Shown here: piece by piece, positions 1 to 11,061 of the stretch | Layout of the letters: every line of letters starts with the position of its first letter | How positions within the stretch are numbered: position 1 is the first letter of the stretch | Source: Aquabacterium sp. | Lineage (GTDB): Bacteria > Pseudomonadota > Gammaproteobacteria > Burkholderiales > Burkholderiaceae_C | Length of the DNA stretch: 11,061 bases | NCBI GenBank assembly: GCA_046160725.1 | Contig: JBJXHB010000079.1 | Coordinates: 1 to 11,061, forward strand | Reading direction: 5' to 3' | Notes under the pieces: model-generated | Seen by the model: only the letters and a program-made list of their open reading frames with translations | Told to the model about the DNA's origin: nothing | The model's database searches: none | Translations under genes and position numbers: made by a program

Positions 1-763
1 CGCGCCGCATCATCAGCTCGCGGTTGGTGGCGGCGAAGCGCTGGGCCCAGCCCACGGCGCGCACGTAGTCACCGAAGTAGCGGCTGCCCTCCTCGAAGTA
101 GGCCAGGTCGCGGTCCGGCAGGTTGGCGTTGTTGCGAATCGCGTCCTGCTTGGCCAGTTCGATGAACATCGTGCCGATGAAGTTGCCCACGCCGCGCGAG
201 CCCGAATGCAGCATGAACCACACGAAGCCGGCCTCGTCCAGGCAAACCTCGATGAAGTGGTTGCCGGTGCCCAGGGTGCCCAGGTGCTTGAGGTGATTGG
301 TCTTTTCCAGCTTGGGGTAGTCGCGGCAGAGTTCGGTGAATTCCGGATCCAGCTCGGCCCAGGCGGTGTTGACCGCGCCAGGAGGCTTCTGCCAGGCACC
401 CGGGTCGTGGCCGCCGGGCTTGCGCCCGTGCGGCACCGCGCGCTCGATGGCCGAGCGCAGCGGGCCCAGGTTGTCTGGCAGGTCCTCGGCCGTCAGCGTG
501 GTCTTGCAGGCGATCATGCCGCAGCCGATGTCCACGCCCACCGCGGCCGGGATGATGGCCTTGAGGGTCGGGATCACCGAGCCCACGGTGGCGCCGATGC
601 CGAAGTGCACGTCCGGCATCACCGCAACGTGCGGATGGACGATCGGCAGGCGCGCCGCGTTGGCCAACTGGCGCCGCGCCGCGTCCTCGACCGGCACGCC
701 GTGGGTCCACATCTTCAGCGGCACGCCGCCGGGGCTGTCTTCGTGGATGTGGCCTATTTCCAT
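1..763 (-). CDS. rtcB: RNA-splicing ligase RtcB, partial: N-terminal ~254 aa, C-terminus beyond the window. Start ATG is the reverse complement of 761-763.
   Basis: Manual minus-strand translation MEIGHIHEDSPGGVPLKMWTHGVPVE...VMPDVHFGIGATVGSVIPT...GTLGTGNHFIEVCLD...MLHSGSRGVGN. It is colinear with E. coli RtcB (KMWTKGVPVE, MPDVHLGKG, GNHFIE, HSGSRG metal and GTP-binding motifs). AGGA-like RBS (aaggaaa) about 8 nt upstream. Not in the ORF track because it has no in-window stop. Confidence 0.9.
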   Translation of the reverse strand, partial: MEIGHIHEDSPGGVPLKMWTHGVPVEDAARRQLANAARLPIVHPHVAVMPDVHFGIGATVGSVIPTLKAIIPAAVGVDIGCGMIACKTTLTAEDLPDNLGPLRSAIERAVPHGRKPGGHDPGAWQKPPGAVNTAWAELDPEFTELCRDYPKLEKTNHLKHLGTLGTGNHFIEVCLDEAGFVWFMLHSGSRGVGNFIGTMFIELAKQDAIRNNANLPDRDLAYFEEGSRYFGDYVRAVGWAQRFAATNRELMMRR

Positions 764-791
764 GATGTTTCCTTGATGGTCGAGGGATGAC

Positions 792-1934
792 TCAGCCCTT
801 CAGCGTCACCAGCCCGTTGAGCACCTGGTCCAGGCCGCCGAACACGGTGATTTTGTCGATGCGCTCGGCCACACGTTCCAGCGTCTCGAGTTCCTTCATG
901 CGCAGCGCAACGGGGCTGCCTTCCATCACCTTGGCGGTGTTGAGCAGCGATCGCGTCGCCGCGGTCTCCTCGCGACGCCGGATCGCATTGGCCTCGGCCG
1001 CCTTGCCCGCCTCCACCACCTGCGCCAAGATGGTCTTCATCGCGCCGGGCAGCACGATGTCCTTCACGCCCACGCCGACCAGCTGCATCCCGTAGTCCGC
1101 GAGCCTGGTGCTGACCTGGGTGGTCACGATCTCGTCGATCACCGTCTTGTTTTCCAGCAGTTCGTCGAGCGAACGGGTGCCCACGGCCGCGCGCAGCCCC
1201 AGCTGCAGCTCGCGATACAGGTACTCCGCCGGCTGCTGCAGTTCCCCGTAGGCCAGCTGCACGTCGCTGAACCGCCAGGTGGCCGACAGGTTCAGGCGCA
1301 GCGCCACCTTGTCGCGGGTCAGGATCTCCTGCCCCGAGACCTCGATGGTCTGCAGCCGCAGGTCCACGATCTCCACCGCCACCGGGCGCTTGAACTTCCA
1401 GAACGCGTAGGACCCCGGCTCCAGCAGGCGCTCGACCTTGCCGTAGGTCGACAGGATGCCGGCACCGTGACGGGGCACCTGCACCTGCAGCACGCCGGAC
1501 AGGCCCGCCACCGCAGGCTGGCGCTGCTGCGACTGCAGCAAACGCAACAGGACCGGCGCCGGCACCTCGGCCGACTCCGCGATTTCGATCACCTCGACAT
1601 CCACCGCCACGATGCCCTTCCAGTACAGGCGCCGGGTACCCGGCGGCATCACCTCGACCAGCGCGCCGTTCTCGGTGCGCAGGCCGACCTGGTTCTCGGT
1701 GAGTTCCACGCGCAGGAACTCCGCGGCCACGACCGCGGGCTCGCGGGCCAGCAGGTAGTCGGCCAGGCCATGGGTGAACGCGGCTTGCTCCAGCGCGAAG
1801 ATCTTCACGCTCAGATCGTCCATCGGCGCGACCAGCCAATGCGTGCCGGGCTGCAGCACGCGCTCGAAATCGCCATTGCGCAGCAGCAGGCCGCGTTCGT
1901 TCTTCTTCACAGTGACACGCTTGAGCATCTTCAT
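792..1934 (-). CDS. SPFH/band-7 (stomatin/HflK-like, slipin) domain protein, 380 aa. The N-terminal beta-region is duplicated and there is no obvious N-terminal TM helix.
   Basis: Internal start MKMLKRVTVKKNERGLLLRNGDFERVLQPGTHWL of track ORF 792..2363. GGAGAA RBS 5 nt upstream of ATG (reverse complement of 1932-1934). Second SPFH-like N-strand GKVERLLEPGSYAFWKFKRPVAVEIVDLRLQTIEVSGQEILTRDKVAL. C-terminus AQVVEAGKAAEANAIRRREETAATR...KITVFGG is typical of band-7 coiled-coil tails. The stop lies 28 nt upstream of the rtcB start. Confidence 0.85.
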   Translation of the reverse strand: MKMLKRVTVKKNERGLLLRNGDFERVLQPGTHWLVAPMDDLSVKIFALEQAAFTHGLADYLLAREPAVVAAEFLRVELTENQVGLRTENGALVEVMPPGTRRLYWKGIVAVDVEVIEIAESAEVPAPVLLRLLQSQQRQPAVAGLSGVLQVQVPRHGAGILSTYGKVERLLEPGSYAFWKFKRPVAVEIVDLRLQTIEVSGQEILTRDKVALRLNLSATWRFSDVQLAYGELQQPAEYLYRELQLGLRAAVGTRSLDELLENKTVIDEIVTTQVSTRLADYGMQLVGVGVKDIVLPGAMKTILAQVVEAGKAAEANAIRRREETAATRSLLNTAKVMEGSPVALRMKELETLERVAERIDKITVFGGLDQVLNGLVTLKG

Positions 1935-2693
1935 GGTGTTCTCCGGTTGTGGGATGCGTGGGGTGGTCTGGTGACGGTGTAGGTGCCGTACAGCAGCAGC
2001 CGCGGACCGCGAATGCCAGGGCTGGGGCACCAGGGTGTGCCGAGGCCGTCTTCGGTTCGCCGGGTTGCGCAACCCCGCAAGGGGCTTCGCGCCGGGCGAT
2101 GAAGGCCGTCTCGGCTGGCCATGGGCGCCATGCCCCGCTTGCTCGCGGCACAAGCGGCCGCCGCTGATGGGCCGGTGCCCCGCTGCCTTGCGGCAGCCGT
2201 GCAACGTCCCACGTCCGGCGTGGTCTTTCGACCAGCTTCTGGGTTTCAATACCAGGACTTGCAGCGGGGGGTTGTGCCCGCCTTGAACAACGGTTTCAGT
2301 CGTTGTTCGTCTGCAGCTTCGGGCGGTCCGGCATGGACGACACCAACGGGCGGACCCGGGCATCGCCCACCAGCGGGGAGAACCTCACGTTGCAACGAGG
2401 CCCGATCCCCTGGCCTTTCGGCTCTCGCCTTCCTCAGCAGATTCGTGTGTGCCCGGGCCACTCAGCCCAGGCGCGATCCTTTCGGCGGCCGGTTTGACCG
2501 GCACGATGGTTGTTCTGTCGCACGCACTTCGGCTGTGTCCCTGCGCGAGAATCCCGTCGGATGTGGTGTCTCGCTGCACGGGGCCAGGCCCTGGACCGCG
2601 CACATCCCGGGCCACCAACACCTGTCGGCGTGGCCACGGAGTGCAGGGGCACACCCGAAGTGGGGCGATCAGAAAAGCGATCGAACAAAGAAA

Positions 2694-2724
2694 GAGGCCC
2701 GGATCCTTTCGGCATCCGGGCCTC
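2694..2724 (-). terminator. Rho-independent terminator on the minus strand. Perfect 11-bp GC-rich stem (gaggcccggat / atccgggcctc) with a 9-nt loop, then UUUCUUUGUU on the minus strand.
   Basis: Read directly. 2694-2704 pairs with 2714-2724. The plus strand has an A-rich run (aaagaaag) 5' of the stem and no T-run 3', so the terminator is oriented for minus-strand transcripts coming from >2724. Confidence 0.5.
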
Positions 2725-2942
2725 TGCGTACAGAGTGGGAAGGTGCGCGCGAACTAGTGGTGTCCTGCGTGTCCTTCACCCGGAATCGATGGGCCCTGGG
2801 CGCTGCCGCGTGGGCCGACGCCTATTGAGGCAAGGCCCAGCGCAACGCGTGCGACCACACCCCGGCCCTGTGTGGGTGGGTTGGTCCAATGGGCGCGGTG
2901 TGTCTTCACGGTCTGGCTCGGTGGGTCGATTCGGGGCGGACT

Positions 2943-2957
2943 GTAAAGAGTCTTTAC
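2943..2957. promoter_or_regulatory. AT-rich 7-1-7 perfect palindrome GTAAAGA-G-TCTTTAC, 24 nt upstream of the HTH regulator start. Candidate operator overlapping its promoter.
   Basis: Read directly. It is an AT-rich island in 70% GC DNA, immediately 5' of the ATG at 2981. Confidence 0.35.
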
Positions 2958-2980
2958 GCAGCCGTCAACCCCCTGCGAGA

Positions 2981-3394
2981 ATGTTCTTCCCCCTTGTTGT
3001 GGATCGAGCGCGGCGCGTGTCCAACCTCACTGTTGCCAGAAGGCGCAATGCCCTGGCCCTGTTCCAGGACTTCGCCGAGCGCGCGGTAGCCGGCGGCGGG
3101 TCACCGAAGGGGCTGGAGCAGGCCTTCGCGGCCCTGCTGCAGGTCTCGCCCAGCATGTGGAGCCAGGTCAAGTCCGCGCGGCCGATCGGCGACAAGCTGG
3201 CGCGGCAGATCGAGGCCGCCTGCGGCAAGCCATCGGGCTGGCTCGACGAGGAACGCGCGGCGGCCGTGCTCAGCCCTGCCGAGCAGACCTTTCTCGATCT
3301 CGCGCTGGCGGCCTACCGGTCGACGAATGCGCAGGGGAGACGTTCGCTGCGGGCTCAGCTTCAGGCGCTGATGAAGGAGCGCGACACGTCGTAG
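2981..3394 (+). CDS. XRE/Cro-CI family helix-turn-helix transcriptional regulator, 137 aa (phage-repressor-like DNA-binding protein).
   Basis: The C-terminal part of track ORF 2510..3394. The upstream 150 aa are R/G-rich junk, so the start is taken at ATG 2981 (GTG 2999 is an alternative). The HTH signature LQVSPSMWSQVKSARPIGDKLARQIEAACGKPSGWLDEE matches the Cro/CI helix2-helix3 and 'G.R.P...wL' pattern. Confidence 0.55.
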   Translation: MFFPLVVDRARRVSNLTVARRRNALALFQDFAERAVAGGGSPKGLEQAFAALLQVSPSMWSQVKSARPIGDKLARQIEAACGKPSGWLDEERAAAVLSPAEQTFLDLALAAYRSTNAQGRRSLRAQLQALMKERDTS

Positions 3395-3651
3395 CTCATC
3401 GGCAGGTCCTGTGCCGCCACGTGGCCATGGCGTCGTACCCGATTGCCTTCAGGGACGCTTGTTCGGGCGGCGCCTTCGGGCTGTCTGCGGTGTGTCGGGA
3501 TGTCCGCTGTCGTTTCGCTTGACGCATTGGCGCGGCAAGGCCCGGGCCGGCGGGCTTGGCAGCCAGAGTCCGGCGCCCGGCCCTGCGGTCCGGGTGCCCT
3601 GCGATCCTCGGCACGGGGCTTAAAGCATGAGCACTTGGCCCAACCCGGGGA

Positions 3652-3686
3652 CCCCTGCGGCCCCTGCGCCCCTGCGGCCCCTGCGG
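3652..3686. repeat. Tandem repeat, ~4 copies of the 9-nt unit CCCCTGCGG (one copy 8 nt), ending in GGGGG.
   Basis: Read directly at 3652-3690, in ORF-poor DNA between the HTH regulator and the TA module. Confidence 0.6.
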
Positions 3687-3851
3687 GGGCTGTCGAGATC
3701 GGACAACAAATCCGAACCACCGGCAGCCAGATTCAACAGATCGCTATGGTCCAAGTCACGCAAACTGGCCTCCACGAAACCCGGTGCGGTTCACGGCGCC
3801 GGTGCGCCGCAGTTGCAAGCCATCCGAGCGGGCGGCTCATGCCGAGTCAAG

Positions 3852-3880
3852 TTGCGAGGATATATCCATTTCAGTATAGT
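3852..3880 (+). promoter_or_regulatory. Sigma70-type promoter TTGCGA-17nt-TATAGT for the toxin-antitoxin operon. The spacer contains the perfect palindrome GGATATATCC (3858-3867). The -10 ends 6 nt before the toxin ATG, so the mRNA is probably leaderless.
   Basis: Read directly. The 17-nt spacer is exact and there is no SD between the -10 and ATG 3887. The palindrome is a plausible antitoxin autorepression operator. Confidence 0.5.
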
Positions 3881-3886
3881 CACGCC

Positions 3887-4063
3887 ATGAAGGCGATCAC
3901 CTTCCTGGGCAACTCGCTGGCGTGCTTGCGCGATTTCCCAGAGGACGCGAGACAGGACGCCGGTTACGTGCTGCACGCCTTCCAGAAGAAGACCCAGGCC
4001 ACCAGCAAGCAGGACATCGAGATTGCGAGAAGTCGATACACCGAACTGATGCGAGGGCGTTGA
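3887..4063 (+). pseudogene. HigB/RelE-ParE-fold toxin (HI1419 / Gp49-like 'addiction module killer' family) with an in-frame internal deletion. It encodes 58 aa against ~100-115 aa expected.
   Basis: MKAITFLGNSLACLRDFPEDARQDAGY joined directly to VLHAFQKKTQATSKQDIEIARSRYTELMRGR. The conserved N-terminus and the C-terminal 'VYVLHAFQKKTQKT' box are present, but the central beta-sheet core (~45 aa) is missing. The stop overlaps the antitoxin start (ATGA-type overlap at 4061-4065). Confidence 0.6.
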
Positions 4064-4347
4064 TGAAGAAGCGAGACAAGACCTACGCCAGCGTCTGGGA
4101 CGCCCTGGCCGACACGCCCGAGCAGGCGGCCAACCTGCAGGCCAGGGCGGACCTGATGCGCCAGCTCGCCGAGCTGATCCAGGCCAAGGGCTGGAAACAG
4201 ATCGAAGCGGCCGAGCGCTGCGGTGTCACTCAGCCACGCATCAACGATCTGCTGCGCGGGCGCGTGTCGCGGTTCTCGCTCGATGCTCTGGTGAACATCG
4301 CGACGTCGCTCGGGCGGCGCGTGAGCGTGGAGCTCGAAGCGGCCTGA
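4063..4347 (+). CDS. higA: HigA-family / HTH_37-type antitoxin (XRE HTH), 94 aa.
   Basis: MKKRDKTYASVWDALADTPEQAANLQARADLMRQLAELIQAKGWKQIEAAERCGVTQPRINDLLRGRVSRFSLDALVNIATSLGRRVSVELEAA, with the characteristic 'PRI(S/N)DLLRGR...FSLDALV...LGRRV' signature of antidotes paired with Gp49/HigB-like toxins. The track ORF 3922..4347 uses an upstream in-frame ATG. ATG 4063 is preferred because it overlaps the toxin stop. Confidence 0.8.
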   Translation: MKKRDKTYASVWDALADTPEQAANLQARADLMRQLAELIQAKGWKQIEAAERCGVTQPRINDLLRGRVSRFSLDALVNIATSLGRRVSVELEAA

Positions 4348-5506: not shown

Positions 5507-6373
5507 ATGCTCGACCTTTCCCCCTCCCGCACCCTGAAAGCCCTGATGACCCTGGCGCTGGTGGCCATCGGCACGCTGGCGCATGCCCAGGCCGTGTTCC
5601 GCGTCACCACCATACCGGAGGAGGCGGCCACCGAGCAGGTGCGCAAGTTCACCCCGTTGGCGACGTACCTTGAAAAGAAGTTGGGCGTGAAGGTCGAGTT
5701 CACCCCGGTCAGCGACTATCCCGCCGCCGTCGAGGCCCTGGTCAACAAGAAGGTCGACCTGGTCTGGTTTGGTGGCTTCACCCATGTGCAGGCGCAGATC
5801 CGCTCCGGCGGCAAGATCGTGCCGATCGCGCAGCGCGAGGAAGACACCCAGTTCCGCTCGGTCTTCATTGCCAAGACCGACTCCGGCATCAAGACCATGG
5901 CCGACATGAAGGGCAAGCAGGTCAGCTTCGGATCGCAGAGCAGCACCTCGGGCCACCTGATGCCGCGCAGCAACCTGCTGGACGCCGGCATCAACCCGGA
6001 CAAGGATTTCCGCCGCATCGCCTACAGCGGTGCGCATGACGCGACCATCGCCTCGGTGGTCAGCGGCAAGGTCGACGCCGCCGCGCTGGACATCACCGTG
6101 TGGCGCAAGTTCGTGTCCGAGAACAAGGTCGACACCAAGGCGGTCGACGTGTTCTTCACCACCCCCCCGTACTACAACTACAACTGGTCGGTGCATGCCG
6201 ACATGCCCGCCGCGATGCGCGACAGGGTGCAGAAGGCACTGCTGGACCTGGACTCGGCCACGCCGGAAGGCAAGGAGATCCTGCAGTTGAACCGGGCCAC
6301 GCGCTACATCCCGACCAAGGCCGAGAACTACAAGGGCCTGGAGGCCGCCGGCCGCAGCGCCGGGCTGATCTGA
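5507..6373 (+). CDS. phnD: PhnD/PtxB-family periplasmic substrate-binding protein of a phosphonate-type ABC transporter, 288 aa with a signal peptide.
   Basis: N-terminal signal MLDLSPSRTLKALMTLALVAIGTLAHAQA. Colinear with E. coli PhnD (KLGVKVEF..DY.....KVDLVWFGG; anion-binding loop FGSQSSTSGHLMP vs FGNGDPNSTSGFLVP). GGAG RBS at 5496-5499. Confidence 0.85.
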   Translation: MLDLSPSRTLKALMTLALVAIGTLAHAQAVFRVTTIPEEAATEQVRKFTPLATYLEKKLGVKVEFTPVSDYPAAVEALVNKKVDLVWFGGFTHVQAQIRSGGKIVPIAQREEDTQFRSVFIAKTDSGIKTMADMKGKQVSFGSQSSTSGHLMPRSNLLDAGINPDKDFRRIAYSGAHDATIASVVSGKVDAAALDITVWRKFVSENKVDTKAVDVFFTTPPYYNYNWSVHADMPAAMRDRVQKALLDLDSATPEGKEILQLNRATRYIPTKAENYKGLEAAGRSAGLI

Positions 6374-6386
6374 TACCGGGCACCCG

Positions 6387-7223
6387 GTGCAGATCTCGAT
6401 CGAGGCGCTGGACGCCCGGCACCCGGCCGCGCGCGCTGGCGCGGCGCCGGCGCTGCGCGGCCTGGCCCTGACGGTGGCCAGTGCCGAGGCGCTGGCGGTG
6501 ATCGGGCCCTCCGGGGCCGGCAAGACCACCCTGCTGCAGGTCCTGGCCTGCGCGCTGAAGCCCGATGCCGGCCGGGTGGTGGTCGATGGCATCGACCCCT
6601 GGTCGCTGCCGCGGCGCCAGCTGCAGGCGTTGCGCGGGCAGCTGCTGCTGGCGCCGCAGGTGCCGCCGTTGCCGCCCCGGCAGCGCGTGGTGACCTCGGT
6701 GCTGGCCGGCCGGCTGCCGGCCTGGTCGCTGTGGACCAGCCTGCGCTCGCTGCTGTATCCCGTCGACATACCAGCCGCCCATGACGCCCTGGCCCGCTTC
6801 GACCTGGCCGAGAAGCTGTTCGAGCGGGTCGACCGGCTGTCCGGCGGCGAGCGACAACGCGTCGGCCTGGCCCGCACGCTGCTGGCGCCGGCCCGCCTGT
6901 GGCTGATCGACGAGCCGCTGTCGGCGCTGGACCCGACGCGCGCCGCGCTGGCGCTGCGCACGCTGGTGGACGAGGCCCGCGCGCGGCGCGTCACGCTGGT
7001 GGCCACCCTGCACGACGTGCCGATGGCACTGTCGCACTTCCCGCGCATCGTCGGCCTGCGCGACGGCCGCGTGCAGTTCGACCTGCAGGCCGCGGCGGTG
7101 ACGCCCGAGCGCCTGCAGGCCCTGTATGCCCAGCACGAGCACGAGCTGCTGGGTGGGGCGGCGACGGCCTCCGACACCGCCGCCGCGCCGCCGCCGGCAC
7201 CGGTGGTCATGCACTGCCGCTGA
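6387..7223 (+). CDS. phnC: ABC transporter ATP-binding protein (PhnC-like), 278 aa, GTG start.
   Basis: Walker A GPSGAGKTT, ABC signature LSGGERQRVGLAR, Walker B LWLIDEPLSALD, H-loop TLHDV. Starts 13 nt after the phnD stop. Confidence 0.9.
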   Translation: MQISIEALDARHPAARAGAAPALRGLALTVASAEALAVIGPSGAGKTTLLQVLACALKPDAGRVVVDGIDPWSLPRRQLQALRGQLLLAPQVPPLPPRQRVVTSVLAGRLPAWSLWTSLRSLLYPVDIPAAHDALARFDLAEKLFERVDRLSGGERQRVGLARTLLAPARLWLIDEPLSALDPTRAALALRTLVDEARARRVTLVATLHDVPMALSHFPRIVGLRDGRVQFDLQAAAVTPERLQALYAQHEHELLGGAATASDTAAAPPPAPVVMHCR

Positions 7224-7247: not shown

Positions 7248-8084
7248 ATGACCGCACCGACGCTGCCCGCCCCGCCCAGCCGCGACCCGGCCTGGGTGTC
7301 GCGCGTCGCCCTGCTCAGCGTGGCGGCGGTGCTGCTGTGGCCGCTGATGGTGGCCACGGAGTTCAAGCCCTGGATCTTCCTGGAGCGGGACAACCTCAAG
7401 GTCACCGGGCAGTTCCTGGCCAGCTTCCTGCCGCCGGCCCACTCGGCCGAGTTCATGGCCATGGTGGCGCGCGAGAGCTGGCGCACGGTGGCCATCGCCA
7501 CCGCCGGCATGACCCTGGCGCTGGTAATCGCCATCCCGCTGGCGGTGCTGTCCGCCCGGGTGCTGTCGGTGTCGGCGCTGTCGGGCCGAATGGCGCGCGG
7601 GCCGACGCTGCTGCGCCAGGCCGTGCGCTGGCTGCTGATCGTGCTGCGCAGCGTGCCCGAGCTGGTGTGGGCGCTGGTGTTCGTCCGCGTGGTCGGCCTG
7701 GGCCCCACGGCCGGCGTGCTGGCCATCGCCCTGACGTATGGCGGCATGCTGGGCAAGGTCTACGGCGAGATCCTGGAAAGCGGCGAGCCCCATGCCACCC
7801 AGACGCTGCTGCGCAACGGCGGCTCGCGCCTGCAGGCCTTCGCCTACGGCCTGCTGCCGCAGAACGCCGCCGAGCTGACCAGCTACACCGTCTACCGCTG
7901 GGAGTGCGCCATCCGCAGCTCGGTGGTGCTGGGCTTCGTCGGTGCCGGCGGGCTGGGCCAGCAGCTGGACAACTCGATGAAGATGTTCAATGGCGGCGAG
8001 GTGCTGACCATGCTGGCCGTCTTCGTCGGCCTGGTGGCGCTGGCCGACCGCGTCAGCGCGGGCCTGCGGCGGGCCCTGGGGTGA
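7248..8084 (+). CDS. phnE: Phosphonate-type ABC transporter permease PhnE (copy 1), 278 aa.
   Basis: Multi-TM hydrophobic protein with the PhnE/PtxC-type EAA-like loop region. Starts 24 nt after the phnC stop. Confidence 0.85.
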   Translation: MTAPTLPAPPSRDPAWVSRVALLSVAAVLLWPLMVATEFKPWIFLERDNLKVTGQFLASFLPPAHSAEFMAMVARESWRTVAIATAGMTLALVIAIPLAVLSARVLSVSALSGRMARGPTLLRQAVRWLLIVLRSVPELVWALVFVRVVGLGPTAGVLAIALTYGGMLGKVYGEILESGEPHATQTLLRNGGSRLQAFAYGLLPQNAAELTSYTVYRWECAIRSSVVLGFVGAGGLGQQLDNSMKMFNGGEVLTMLAVFVGLVALADRVSAGLRRALG

Positions 8085-10089: not shown

Positions 10090-10110
10090 CCCCTTCCCTG
10101 CGAGGTGAAC

Positions 10111-11061
10111 ATGTCCGCCATCCCCACGCCCGCATCGATGCCGGATGCCCGGTCCCTGCTGGCCGAGCGCTATGCCGCGGTGCGTGGGCAGACCCTGGCA
10201 CTGGCCGAGGGGCTGTCCGAGGCCGACTGCCAGGCGCAGTCGATGGCCGATGCCAGCCCGGTGAAATGGCACCTGGCCCATGTCACCTGGTTCTTCGAGA
10301 CCTTCGTGCTGGAGCGCCACGAGCCCGGCTTCGCGCCGCATCACCCGGCCTTCCGGGTGCTGTTCAACAGCTACTACAACGGCGTGGGCGACCAGCATCC
10401 GCGGCCGCAGCGGGGCCTGGTCACCCGGCCTGGGCTTGCGCAGGTGCTGGCCTATCGCCAGGCCGTGGATGCCCGCATGGCGCAGTGGCTGCGCCAGCCG
10501 GTGCCGGCCGAGGCCGCGGCCCTGGTCGAGCTGGGCCTGCAGCATGAGCAGCAGCACCAGGAGCTGATCCTCACCGACCTCAAGCACCTGCTGTCGTGCA
10601 ACCCGCTGCAGCCGGTGTACCGGCCGGGTTGGCCGCTGGCGCCGGTGGCGCCGGTGGCCATGCGCTTCCTGCCCTCCGCAGGCGGCCGGGTGGCCATCGG
10701 CCATTCCGGCGCGGGCTTCGCCTTCGACAACGAGACACCGCGGCATGACGTCTGGCTGCGGCCGTATGCGCTGGCCAACCGGCTGGTCACGCATGGTGAG
10801 TTCGCCGCCTTCATCGCCGACGGCGGCTACCGCGACCCGCGCTGGTGGTTGTCGGCCGGCTGGGACTGGGTGCGTAACCAGGCCGTGCAGGCGCCGCTGT
10901 ATTGGCGCCGCGAGGGCGACGGCCTGCTGGACTGGAGCGCCTTCACGCTGCACGGCCGGGTGGCCATCGACCCGCATACGCCGGCCACCCACATCAGCCT
11001 GTACGAGGCCGATGCCTACTGCCGCTGGTGGTCGGCGCAGCATCCCGGCACGCCGGCCGCG
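10111..11061 (+). CDS. egtB: Ergothioneine biosynthesis sulfoxide synthase EgtB (DinB_2 plus FGE-sulfatase-like domains), partial: N-terminal 317 aa, continues beyond the window.
   Basis: MSAIPTPASMPDARSLLAERY...SPVKWHLAHVTWFFETFVL...LGLQHEQQHQELILTDLKHLL (DinB metal-binding region), then ...RVAIGHSGAGFAFDNETPRHDVWLRPYALANRLVTHGEF...GGYRDPRWW (FGE-like domain). GAGGTG RBS at 10103-10108. The EgtB vs SenA (selenoneine) subtype is not decidable by eye. Confidence 0.88.
   Translation, partial: MSAIPTPASMPDARSLLAERYAAVRGQTLALAEGLSEADCQAQSMADASPVKWHLAHVTWFFETFVLERHEPGFAPHHPAFRVLFNSYYNGVGDQHPRPQRGLVTRPGLAQVLAYRQAVDARMAQWLRQPVPAEAAALVELGLQHEQQHQELILTDLKHLLSCNPLQPVYRPGWPLAPVAPVAMRFLPSAGGRVAIGHSGAGFAFDNETPRHDVWLRPYALANRLVTHGEFAAFIADGGYRDPRWWLSAGWDWVRNQAVQAPLYWRREGDGLLDWSAFTLHGRVAIDPHTPATHISLYEADAYCRWWSAQHPGTPAA

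Follow-up and report, generated by a model that had tools for sequence, protein, structure and literature searches.

Does the position of a gene for an SPFH (Band_7) protein directly ahead of rtcB, at one end of a contig from an Aquabacterium sp. metagenome-assembled genome (MAG), mark a functional pairing of the two products, or is the adjacency without meaning? The entire contig of 11,061 bp was analysed and is called the window here. RtcB is an RNA ligase that joins 2',3'-cyclic-phosphate or 3'-phosphate ends to 5'-OH ends, for example those left by ribotoxin cuts in tRNA and rRNA, and its C-terminal histidine is the nucleophile that forms RtcB-GMP. An initial annotation of this DNA had proposed a two-gene operon and had considered the coupling of an SPFH protein to an RNA ligase unusual. 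The pairing is real and conserved, and the locus belongs to an already described Band-7/RtcB module. The reading preferred here, with a probability of roughly 60%, is that the SPFH protein and an RNA would serve RtcB as scaffold or cofactor in this RNA-repair module. The most interesting thing seen at the locus is a covarying leader RNA ahead of the Band_7 gene, in a region whose RNA components the initial annotation had overlooked.

The Band_7 and rtcB gene pair

Both genes are carried on the minus strand. The Band_7 gene (792–1934; ATG 1934–1932, TGA 794–792) encodes a putatively soluble protein of 380 aa and is followed, after a spacer of 28 nt (764–791, reading GTCATCCCTCGACCATCAAGGAAACATC), by rtcB, the start codon of which occupies 763–761. 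The initial annotation had the spacing and the common orientation right, to which can be added that the strand is minus and that rtcB is truncated. An AAGGAAA ribosome-binding site (774–768) is located 6 nt ahead of the rtcB ATG. Only the N-terminal 254 codons of rtcB are present (1–763, minus strand) because the contig ends there; the gene continues past the start of the window.

The 254 codons are free of stops and match the Pfam RtcB family (PF01139; 218.9 bits, where the cutoff is 27; E = 1.9e-64; profile positions 1–253 of 426). The motifs D78-I-G-C81, G-N-H169-F and H186-SGSRG align with the D-I-N-C, GNHF and HTGSRG of P. horikoshii RtcB (1uc2/4dwq). The fragment is 76% identical to the full-length RtcB of a related locus (L001). 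Residues D78, C81, H169 and H186 are presumably the N-terminal metal ligands, as their counterparts are in established RtcB structures.

A scan of positions 1–3450 gave no sigma-70-like promoter on the coding (minus) strand in the gap between the two genes, and no terminator-like site was found on the minus strand in the 764–791 spacer. The sole terminator-like match in 1–3450 is on the opposite (plus) strand at 836–849, within the Band_7 gene. From this sequence evidence Band_7 and rtcB appear to form an operon-like pair, as had been proposed. The pair stands at the end of one same-strand unit, which runs from a sigma-70-like promoter (2968–2940) through about 1 kb of structured non-coding RNA to Band_7, the 28-nt spacer and rtcB.

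Conservation of the neighbourhood

The extent of the pairing was surveyed in 80 loci fetched from species-representative genomes with an alignment of 25 diverse Band_7 members, 78 of the loci having enough downstream sequence. They span Sphaerotilaceae, Comamonadaceae, Rhodocyclales, Burkholderia, Ralstonia, Pseudomonas, Undibacterium, Enterobacterales, Snodgrassella and Gilliamella, and an RtcB was counted if at least 50% identical to a reference. Since RtcB was found downstream of Band_7 on the same strand in 60 of the 78 loci, in both Beta- and Gammaproteobacteria, the adjacency is far beyond chance. In another three loci RtcB is located elsewhere within 5 kb. The SPFH protein of the window is 49–81% identical to the Band_7 proteins that precede RtcB in the 60 loci. 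The initial annotation had allowed that the adjacency might be confined to a single lineage and had called for a survey of gene neighbourhoods; rtcB proves to be a recurrent neighbour in many genera and two proteobacterial classes.

The gap between Band_7 and RtcB is shorter than 150 nt in 32 loci and holds one inserted gene in 27, the inserts encoding a treble-clef zinc protein, a PNKP-type phosphatase, a ClpP/NfeD-like protease or proteins of unknown function. The treble-clef zinc protein (PF13451), seen for instance at 6180–6539 of L041, recurs in this slot in Pseudomonas and Rhodocyclales. L066 has a PNKP-type HAD phosphatase (HAD_PNKP, an RNA-end healing enzyme; 6239–6712) between Band_7 and RtcB, and L005 has a ClpP/NfeD-like serine protease gene after Band_7 (2875–3903), as does L008. 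RlaP (PF10127) is often encoded 3' of RtcB. The presence of such RNA-repair partners (RlaP, and HAD_PNKP in L066) in the same operons was counted in favour of the module reading.

Band_7 is also kept where RtcB is fragmentary or absent, namely in L010 (6941–7018), L012 (6973–7236, an 87-aa remnant), L013, L020, L079, L080 and L085. RlaP follows Band_7 directly in Klebsiella oxytoca (L080), Superficieibacter (L079) and the IMG/VR contig L085. The latter was the single relative returned by a scan of the IMG/VR viral contigs, with an Enterobacterales-like Band_7–RlaP layout, and the family is therefore not phage-borne.

Regulation

A divergent RtcR gene (PF06956 with a sigma-54 interaction domain) was found in about 55 of the loci, together with a TGGCACG-N4-TxGC promoter located 450–620 nt upstream of Band_7, just 5' of a tRNA-like gene that is described below. 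Neither RtcR nor the sigma-54 promoter is present in the window and in about 20 Sphaerotilaceae-like loci. The sigma-54 pattern search of the window gave two matches against 7.1 expected by chance, neither of them in the right place or on the right strand; a stricter scan of positions -900 to 0 from Band_7 gave none, and RtcR had no tblastn match anywhere in the 11-kb window. The initial annotation had likewise found no sigma-54 element upstream and had expected a different mode of regulation, and both points agree with the contrast between the RtcR loci and this clade.

In their place, in the window as in these loci, is a sigma-70-like promoter (TTGACG-17-TACAGT; window 2940–2968, minus strand) directed toward the operon, the sole promoter-like site in 1–3450, where 0.2 would be expected. 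Its surroundings (2982–2933) are 85–89% identical in L001, L002, L008 and L013. A divergent gene (2987–3394, plus strand) of about 135 aa, the start of which is uncertain, resembles CI-type repressors, matching PHROG 12107 (E = 1.5e-10) and PHROG 5736 (E = 3.5e-05) and, weakly, the phage repressor CI structure 7nkv (E = 0.017); no Pfam match was found for it. A divergent small repressor-like gene is retained as a neighbour in the approximately 20 loci without RtcR. Judged by these similarities and its position, the CI-like gene is a candidate regulator in the place of RtcR. In the Aquabacterium lineage control would thus have passed from RtcR and sigma-54 to the divergent CI-like repressor, with probable de-repression under stress. 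The regulator swap is common to the clade and the loss of the tRNA-like RNA, considered below, is lineage-specific.

RNA elements upstream of Band_7

Across the 80 loci a tRNA-like gene (b7a-tRNA) is located at -300 to -420 from the Band_7 ATG. In relatives of the window its D- and T-arms are invariant, the acceptor stem is just 4–5 bp long and a CCA end is lacking. The anticodon is not a conserved feature, because the loops in this position vary freely or give way to GAAA or UUCG tetraloops, as in Burkholderia and Pseudomonas. An alignment of 36 copies supports a cloverleaf fold with compensatory changes in 11 of 18 pairs, and a covariance model (R1) built from the same copies scores 50–88 bits in nearly every locus missed by Aragorn. 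Many loci carry two such modules in tandem, including L040, L046, L048–L051, L057 and L058 (at about -420 and -350 from Band_7) as well as L002, L005, L023 and others (at about -420). The first of the tandem modules has a full 7-bp acceptor stem and, in Sphaerotilaceae, lacks a D-arm and bears an ACCA end. RNase P is the enzyme that would be expected to process a tRNA-like 5' end; an RNase P RNA gene is found immediately beside rtcR in an Acidovorax MAG (L016, 2219–2654, minus strand), which is probably incidental.

The conserved stretch of about 240 nt from the tRNA-like gene to the Band_7 ribosome-binding site is occupied by a structured leader RNA, which in L001–L038, L061 and L065 is positioned at about -290 to -5 from the ATG. 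In the window it was delimited by RNAalifold, pair counts and nhmmer to 1985–2233 (minus strand), that is, about 230 nt plus a window-specific insertion of 53 nt (2101–2049), and is closed by a helix of 2219–2216 with 1988–1985. Two independent alignments agree on its topology. The first (A3), of 21 sequences from the window and 20 Sphaerotilaceae/Comamonadaceae loci, has 39 pairs, with 94.5% of cells paired against 31–45% in a slid control, and 23 pairs changed on both sides against 6–8 in the control. The second (A4), of 21 sequences from Rhodocyclales, Burkholderia, Ralstonia and Pseudomonas, has 34 pairs, with 91.5% of cells paired against 34–45%, and 25 pairs changed on both sides against 6–14. 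In each alignment the number of pairs changed on both sides was reached by 0 of 500 shuffles. The window leader forms 37 of the 39 consensus pairs despite the loss of the tRNA-like module (nhmmer E = 8.8e-43).

No Rfam family matches the leader, and no description of it was found in the literature, in which the 2016 study of Burroughs and Aravind is represented here by its citation and abstract. It is possible, and proposed here tentatively, that the leader of about 230 nt represents a widespread RNA family not described before, which is specific to Band-7/RtcB operons and occurs at least in Burkholderiales, Rhodocyclales and Pseudomonas, and that the leader, rather than the tRNA-like module alone, is the conserved RNA component of these operons. 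If this is true, the leader may make up the body of an RNA that partners a vault-like SPFH cage in the manner of a Y RNA, or may alternatively be a damage-sensing leader, and the window would be a natural deletion variant in which loss of the tRNA-like module has left the leader, Band_7 and RtcB in place.

Further elements of the minus strand separate the leader from the promoter. A hairpin-rich conserved 5' leader segment (2324–2486) is 70–80% identical to L002, L008, L012, L014 and L021 by alignment and blastn, its counterpart in relatives being located between an HNH gene and the tRNA-like modules. Patch B (2525–2671) is a structured element of about 150 nt with a long closing stem and three internal hairpins, conserved at 80–88% identity in 12 loci. 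Its alignment (A6) has 49 pairs, 96.4% paired against 32–49% in the slid control, with eight pairs changed on both sides against 0–2; since only 10 similar sequences were available it is a lead with moderate support. In relatives the counterpart of patch B is found between a tRNA-Gly gene and a tRNA array. Patch A (2684–2751), with 80–90% identity in 13 loci, is a GC-rich terminator- or attenuator-like hairpin (GAGGCCCGGAT..ATCCGGGCCTC followed by TTTCTTTGTT) some 220 nt past the sigma-70-like promoter, and was missed by the simple terminator scan because its loop and bulge exceed the scan rules. A 54-aa open reading frame is called between the promoter and the patch A hairpin in L002 and L004 and has no clear equivalent in the window.

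The tRNA-like RNA and the leader might instead be cis-regulatory, sensing RNA damage or translational stress (for instance by being processed or cleaved, or by binding tRNA fragments) and controlling read-through into Band_7 and rtcB or the stability of their mRNA, with Band_7 only a generic scaffold or chaperone for RtcB. The RNA elements always belong to the untranslated 5' portion of a single transcription unit shared with Band_7, after the promoter (sigma-54 or sigma-70-like) and ahead of the ribosome-binding site; the clade of the window has the conserved terminator-like hairpin downstream of its promoter, and loss of the tRNA-like part leaves the leader in place. However, the closing helix of the leader ends about 50 nt before the ribosome-binding site and leaves it uncovered, no terminator follows the leader, and the constancy of the D- and T-arms suggests that factors which bind tRNA recognise the module, as in the case of YrlA. 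A purely regulatory role is regarded as unlikely.

Loss of the tRNA-like module in the window

At the syntenic position the window retains only a remnant of the tRNA-like gene (2251–2323, minus strand), to which the R1 model gives 9.4 bits (E = 0.075). The D-arm is deleted from the remnant, which consists of a short stem of acceptor type, a hairpin of 8 bp and a T-stem (GCGGG/CCCGC) whose loop is non-canonical, reading CACAACC as compared with TTCGACT in relatives (consensus TTCGANT). Alignment with 13 close relatives indicates a deletion of about 100 nt, which took the first of the two tRNA-like modules, the upstream one with its 7-bp acceptor stem, a hairpin with a tetraloop, a T-arm and an ACCA end, and also the 5' half of the b7a-tRNA. 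Searches of 2251–2323 with Aragorn and Rfam were negative. The locus was filed as an RNA-degenerate variant and not as a full member because of the R1 score of the remnant against 50–88 bits elsewhere, the deleted D-arm and the mutated T-loop. The remnant was also considered as a functional minimal tRNA-like RNA with a three-way junction fold, and this was rejected as unsupported, given a folding z-score of -1.3 against shuffles, which is not a significant folding signal, and a loop that is not a T-loop. The loss of the segment (junction 2323/2324) may be an assembly artefact.

In the close relatives L001–L004 the region upstream of Band_7 holds 5–14 tRNA genes in an array, an HNH gene of 191 aa and a tRNA-like gene standing by itself. 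Array and HNH gene occur together in L001–L012, L014, L021, L023, L026, L038 and L061. In these sister loci arrays of 5–15 tRNA genes and the 191-aa HNH endonuclease gene are in the same orientation as, and directly 5' of, the tRNA-like gene, Band_7 and RtcB; this region spans 4076–5405 in L001 and 3255–5492 in L002, and the arrangement also occurs in L063, L073 and L075. The HNH gene had no tblastn match in the window, and no tRNA gene was found within 1935–2990. L013 is collinear with the window and is likewise without array and HNH gene but keeps both tRNA-like modules, and the loss specific to the window is for this reason the tRNA-like segment alone.

Could this deletion be a first step of pseudogenisation, in a decaying locus where the pair is no longer a working repair system? 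The tRNA-like modules are deleted or degenerate, the window has neither the array nor the HNH gene of most sister loci, four of those loci (L010, L012, L013 and L020) have RtcB only in fragments or not at all, and a neighbouring Gp49/HigB-like toxin gene is truncated too. The protein-coding and leader parts speak against decay. The Band_7 protein is full length with all 25 invariant family residues kept, the rtcB codons present are without stops and retain the metal-binding motifs, the leader is nearly complete in its consensus pairs, and the promoter region is as conserved as stated above. Moreover, Enterobacterales loci without a recognisable b7a-tRNA still keep RtcR, Band_7, RtcB and RlaP. 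No YrlA was found beside Band_7 at the gathering threshold in these Enterobacterales loci, and their leader shows a T-arm-like hairpin in an alignment of seven sequences only. Decay of the whole locus is considered quite unlikely. Under the preferred reading the tRNA-like RNA part would have been deleted in the window, and the leader, the SPFH gene and rtcB left intact.

The SPFH protein

The SPFH protein matches Pfam Band_7 (PF01145) over aa 153–323 with 113.6 bits against a cutoff of 23.6 (E = 1.4e-32). No hydrophobic or transmembrane segment was found in it (maximum Kyte-Doolittle 19-residue mean 1.37), and on its sequence the protein is classed as soluble. The entry motif xERGxxxxxGxxxxxLxPGxHxxx is present three times, at about aa 12, 82 and 157. 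An AlphaFold model built on 25 diverse relatives (pLDDT 84.7) predicts three beta modules (aa 4–47, 73–117 and 148–191), an SPFH core (195–294) and long C-terminal helices (297–361), so that an alpha/beta core is followed by a long helix of the oligomerisation type. The initial annotation had judged the protein cytoplasmic and duplicated at its N-terminus, which fits the lack of a hydrophobic segment and the threefold entry beta module; the transmembrane and structure prediction that it had recommended thus bears it out. Most of the 541 cluster representatives of the family (50% identity; E ≤ 1e-30) have the same layout of approximately 375–390 aa.

In a Foldseek search of the PDB the model matched stomatin (9z7u/9oh9; E about 1e-15), HflK/C (7vhq; E about 1e-12) and further cage-forming SPFH proteins, namely prohibitin, erlin, flotillin and QmcA. 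The E-values of the SPFH cage proteins range from 1e-15 to 1e-9, with spans of 230–280 columns; the major vault protein (MVP), with E-values of 1e-11 to 1e-8, gave the longest span at 407–467 columns. As the TM-scores of these matches are about 0.4, they denote an architectural resemblance to the cages and MVP and are no proof of homology. The nearest NCBIfam models are HflK/HflC, far under their cutoffs (51 vs 159), and Pfam Vault and MVP_shoulder had no match in the protein, so the MVP likeness is at the fold level only. The membrane anchor that defines stomatin- and HflK/C-type SPFH proteins (slipins in the strict sense) is lacking, the N-terminus consisting instead of two extra beta modules.

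That this is a conventional SPFH protein regulating membrane microdomains or proteases, with a meaningless rtcB adjacency, is very improbable: it would accord with the nearest NCBIfam models, distant as they are, and with the ClpP/NfeD-like protease genes of L005 and L008, which recall SPFH-NfeD operons, but it is contradicted by the absence of a membrane anchor, by the neighbourhood statistics in two classes, by a gene set placed between RtcR/sigma-54 and RtcB/RlaP with a PNKP-type phosphatase in the L066 slot, and by the published association.

Proposed role of the module

The scaffold or cofactor role preferred above may be pictured as follows. The C-terminal helices of the soluble SPFH protein would bring about its oligomerisation to a ring or cage like those of stomatin, HflK/C and MVP, and the cage together with the co-transcribed RNA would deliver damaged RNA to RtcB or confine it there. 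By analogy, this role would resemble that of Ro60/Rsr and Y RNA in the rsr-yrlBA-rtcBA operon of Salmonella.

Several points weigh against this proposal. The catalytic histidine and the C-terminal half of RtcB fall outside the window, and the tRNA-like RNA on which the scaffold model relies is lacking within it. Oligomerisation and RNA binding of the SPFH protein are suggested only by the modelled fold, which resembles the cage proteins at a modest score, and co-transcription of Band_7 and rtcB is likewise suggested by the gene arrangement. No RtcB is found within 5 kb of Band_7 in 15 of the 78 loci, and in L010 and L012, which are sister loci of the window, it is fragmentary; the tie of Band_7 to RtcB is therefore not a strict one. 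No experiment ties any Band-7 protein of this family to RtcB activity or RNA repair, and the b7a-tRNA is, according to the preprint through which it is cited, without experimental validation (bioRxiv 10.1101/312249). Deletion of paFlo8, the SPFH gene of a Pseudomonas aeruginosa rtc locus, gave no growth, virulence, motility, biofilm or oxidative-stress phenotype, RNA damage not being among the assays (PMC13086221). A reading of the locus as a defence system was dropped, there being no PADLOC match for Band_7 or RtcB.

The module is widespread, its carriers including P. aeruginosa, the Burkholderia cepacia complex, Klebsiella and Proteus. The locus adds no new kind of system; together with its relatives it provides a sharper list of parts. 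The promoter is either of the RtcR/sigma-54 kind or of the sigma-70 type and accompanied by a CI-like repressor. The RNA parts are a tRNA-like gene, or two of them, and the covarying leader (about 230 nt). The protein parts are a soluble SPFH protein of vault-like build, RtcB and RlaP, to which genes for end healing or a zinc ribbon may be added. Ready genetic contrasts are offered by natural variation, with the tRNA-like RNA lost in the window and in Enterobacterales, RtcB lost elsewhere, and the tRNA array and HNH gene added in Sphaerotilaceae.

Other features of the window

Rfam had no match at E ≤ 1 in the whole window. The only tRNA called by Aragorn, a tRNA-Ile(GAT) at 7308–7392 (plus strand), is inside the first BPD_transp_1 permease reading frame (7248–8084) and is without Rfam tRNA support; it is probably false. 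The truncated toxin gene mentioned above (3887–4063, plus strand) encodes a HigB-like protein of the Gp49 family with 58 aa, which matches only profile positions 61–89 of 90 and looks internally deleted. It is followed by a HigA-like HTH_37 antitoxin gene (4063–4347, plus strand) that looks intact and has weak PADLOC PDC-M64 matches. Between 4387 and 10089 are genes for two methyltransferases, one a histidine methyltransferase similar to EgtD (PF10017, minus strand) and the other of class I, as well as for a phosphonate-type ABC transporter (Phosphonate-bd, ABC_tran and two BPD_transp_1 parts) and an efflux protein of the SMR family. Only open reading frames without a Pfam match occupy the final 1 kb or so (10090–11061).

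Comparison with known systems

Among the cage-forming proteins, MVP has in common with the SPFH protein a set of beta repeats at the N-terminus, a 'shoulder' of SPFH type and a helix of considerable length, and in both cases a small non-coding RNA is associated with the module; MVP, however, has about 860 aa as compared with 380 aa here, and the resemblance, at a TM-score of about 0.4, does not extend to a Pfam Vault match. Stomatin, which forms a 16-mer cage, and HflK/C have a membrane anchor, whereas the window protein has none and its oligomer is only predicted by likeness.

The Salmonella rsr-yrlBA-rtcBA operon combines Ro60/Rsr, Y RNAs and RtcB/RtcA under the control of RtcR (PMC7790460). 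Its logic matches that proposed for the Band-7/RtcB module, with an RNA-binding scaffold protein and a tRNA-like non-coding RNA encoded 5' of RtcB. The scaffold there is a TROVE protein as opposed to an SPFH protein, and RtcR is lacking in the window. No TROVE domain was found by Pfam in the genes of the window and no Y RNA or YrlA by Rfam (E ≤ 1) in the window; the b7a modules show weak YrlA matches of 31–33 bits, under the gathering score of 69.

In Anabaena the loss of TrcR de-represses rtcB (all3526), the HNH gene all8564, the slipin family gene alr0740 and a tRNA L-array, and all genes of the TrcR regulon are induced by translational stress (PMC8421152; PMC10272220). The stress or ribotoxin-response role suggested by the initial annotation is in keeping with this literature. 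The same parts are clustered in the sister loci of the window, with the array of 5–15 tRNA genes, the HNH gene, the tRNA-like gene, a slipin or Band-7 gene, RtcB and a divergent repressor, while in Anabaena the genes are dispersed; the window itself is without array and HNH gene. Alr0740 is likened to the window Band_7 by its description as a slipin and by its co-regulation. The repressors also differ, TrcR being a ribbon-helix-helix protein and that of the window CI- or helix-turn-helix-like. The divergent gene was considered as a TrcR homologue, and this was rejected in view of its CI-type matches and the restriction of TrcR to cyanobacteria; the likeness is kept as a functional analogy only.

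Closer to the window in setting is PaFlo8 (PA14_60630) of P. aeruginosa PA14, which a 2026 study reports to be embedded in an rtc locus with RtcR, RtcB and RtcA (PMC13086221) and which, likened by locus setting, is another case of SPFH within an RtcB locus. The Pseudomonas loci surveyed here (L040, L046, L048–L051 and L057) combine RtcR and a sigma-54 promoter with two tRNA-like genes and the leader, and they encode Band_7, a zf_Tbcl protein, RtcB and RlaP. The window differs from the PaFlo8 locus in its lack of RtcR and in its CI-like repressor and sigma-70-like promoter.

The Band-7–RtcB pairing is accordingly not new. It was described in 2016 as a predicted RNA-repair module of Band-7, RtcB and the tRNA-like b7a-tRNA (Burroughs & Aravind, Nucleic Acids Res 2016, as cited in bioRxiv 10.1101/312249), and with this, PaFlo8 (PMC13086221) and the slipin–rtcB association of Anabaena (PMC10272220), the view of the initial annotation that such a coupling is unusual does not stand. 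The citation and abstract of the 2016 work gave no confirmation of a prior description of the leader of about 230 nt or of the second tandem tRNA-like module. As far as that system is represented by its citation, the window is unlike it in having the b7a-tRNA as a remnant and no RtcR/sigma-54 control, and like it in the soluble Band-7 protein of an orthologous family encoded directly 5' of rtcB and in the syntenic RNA region upstream.

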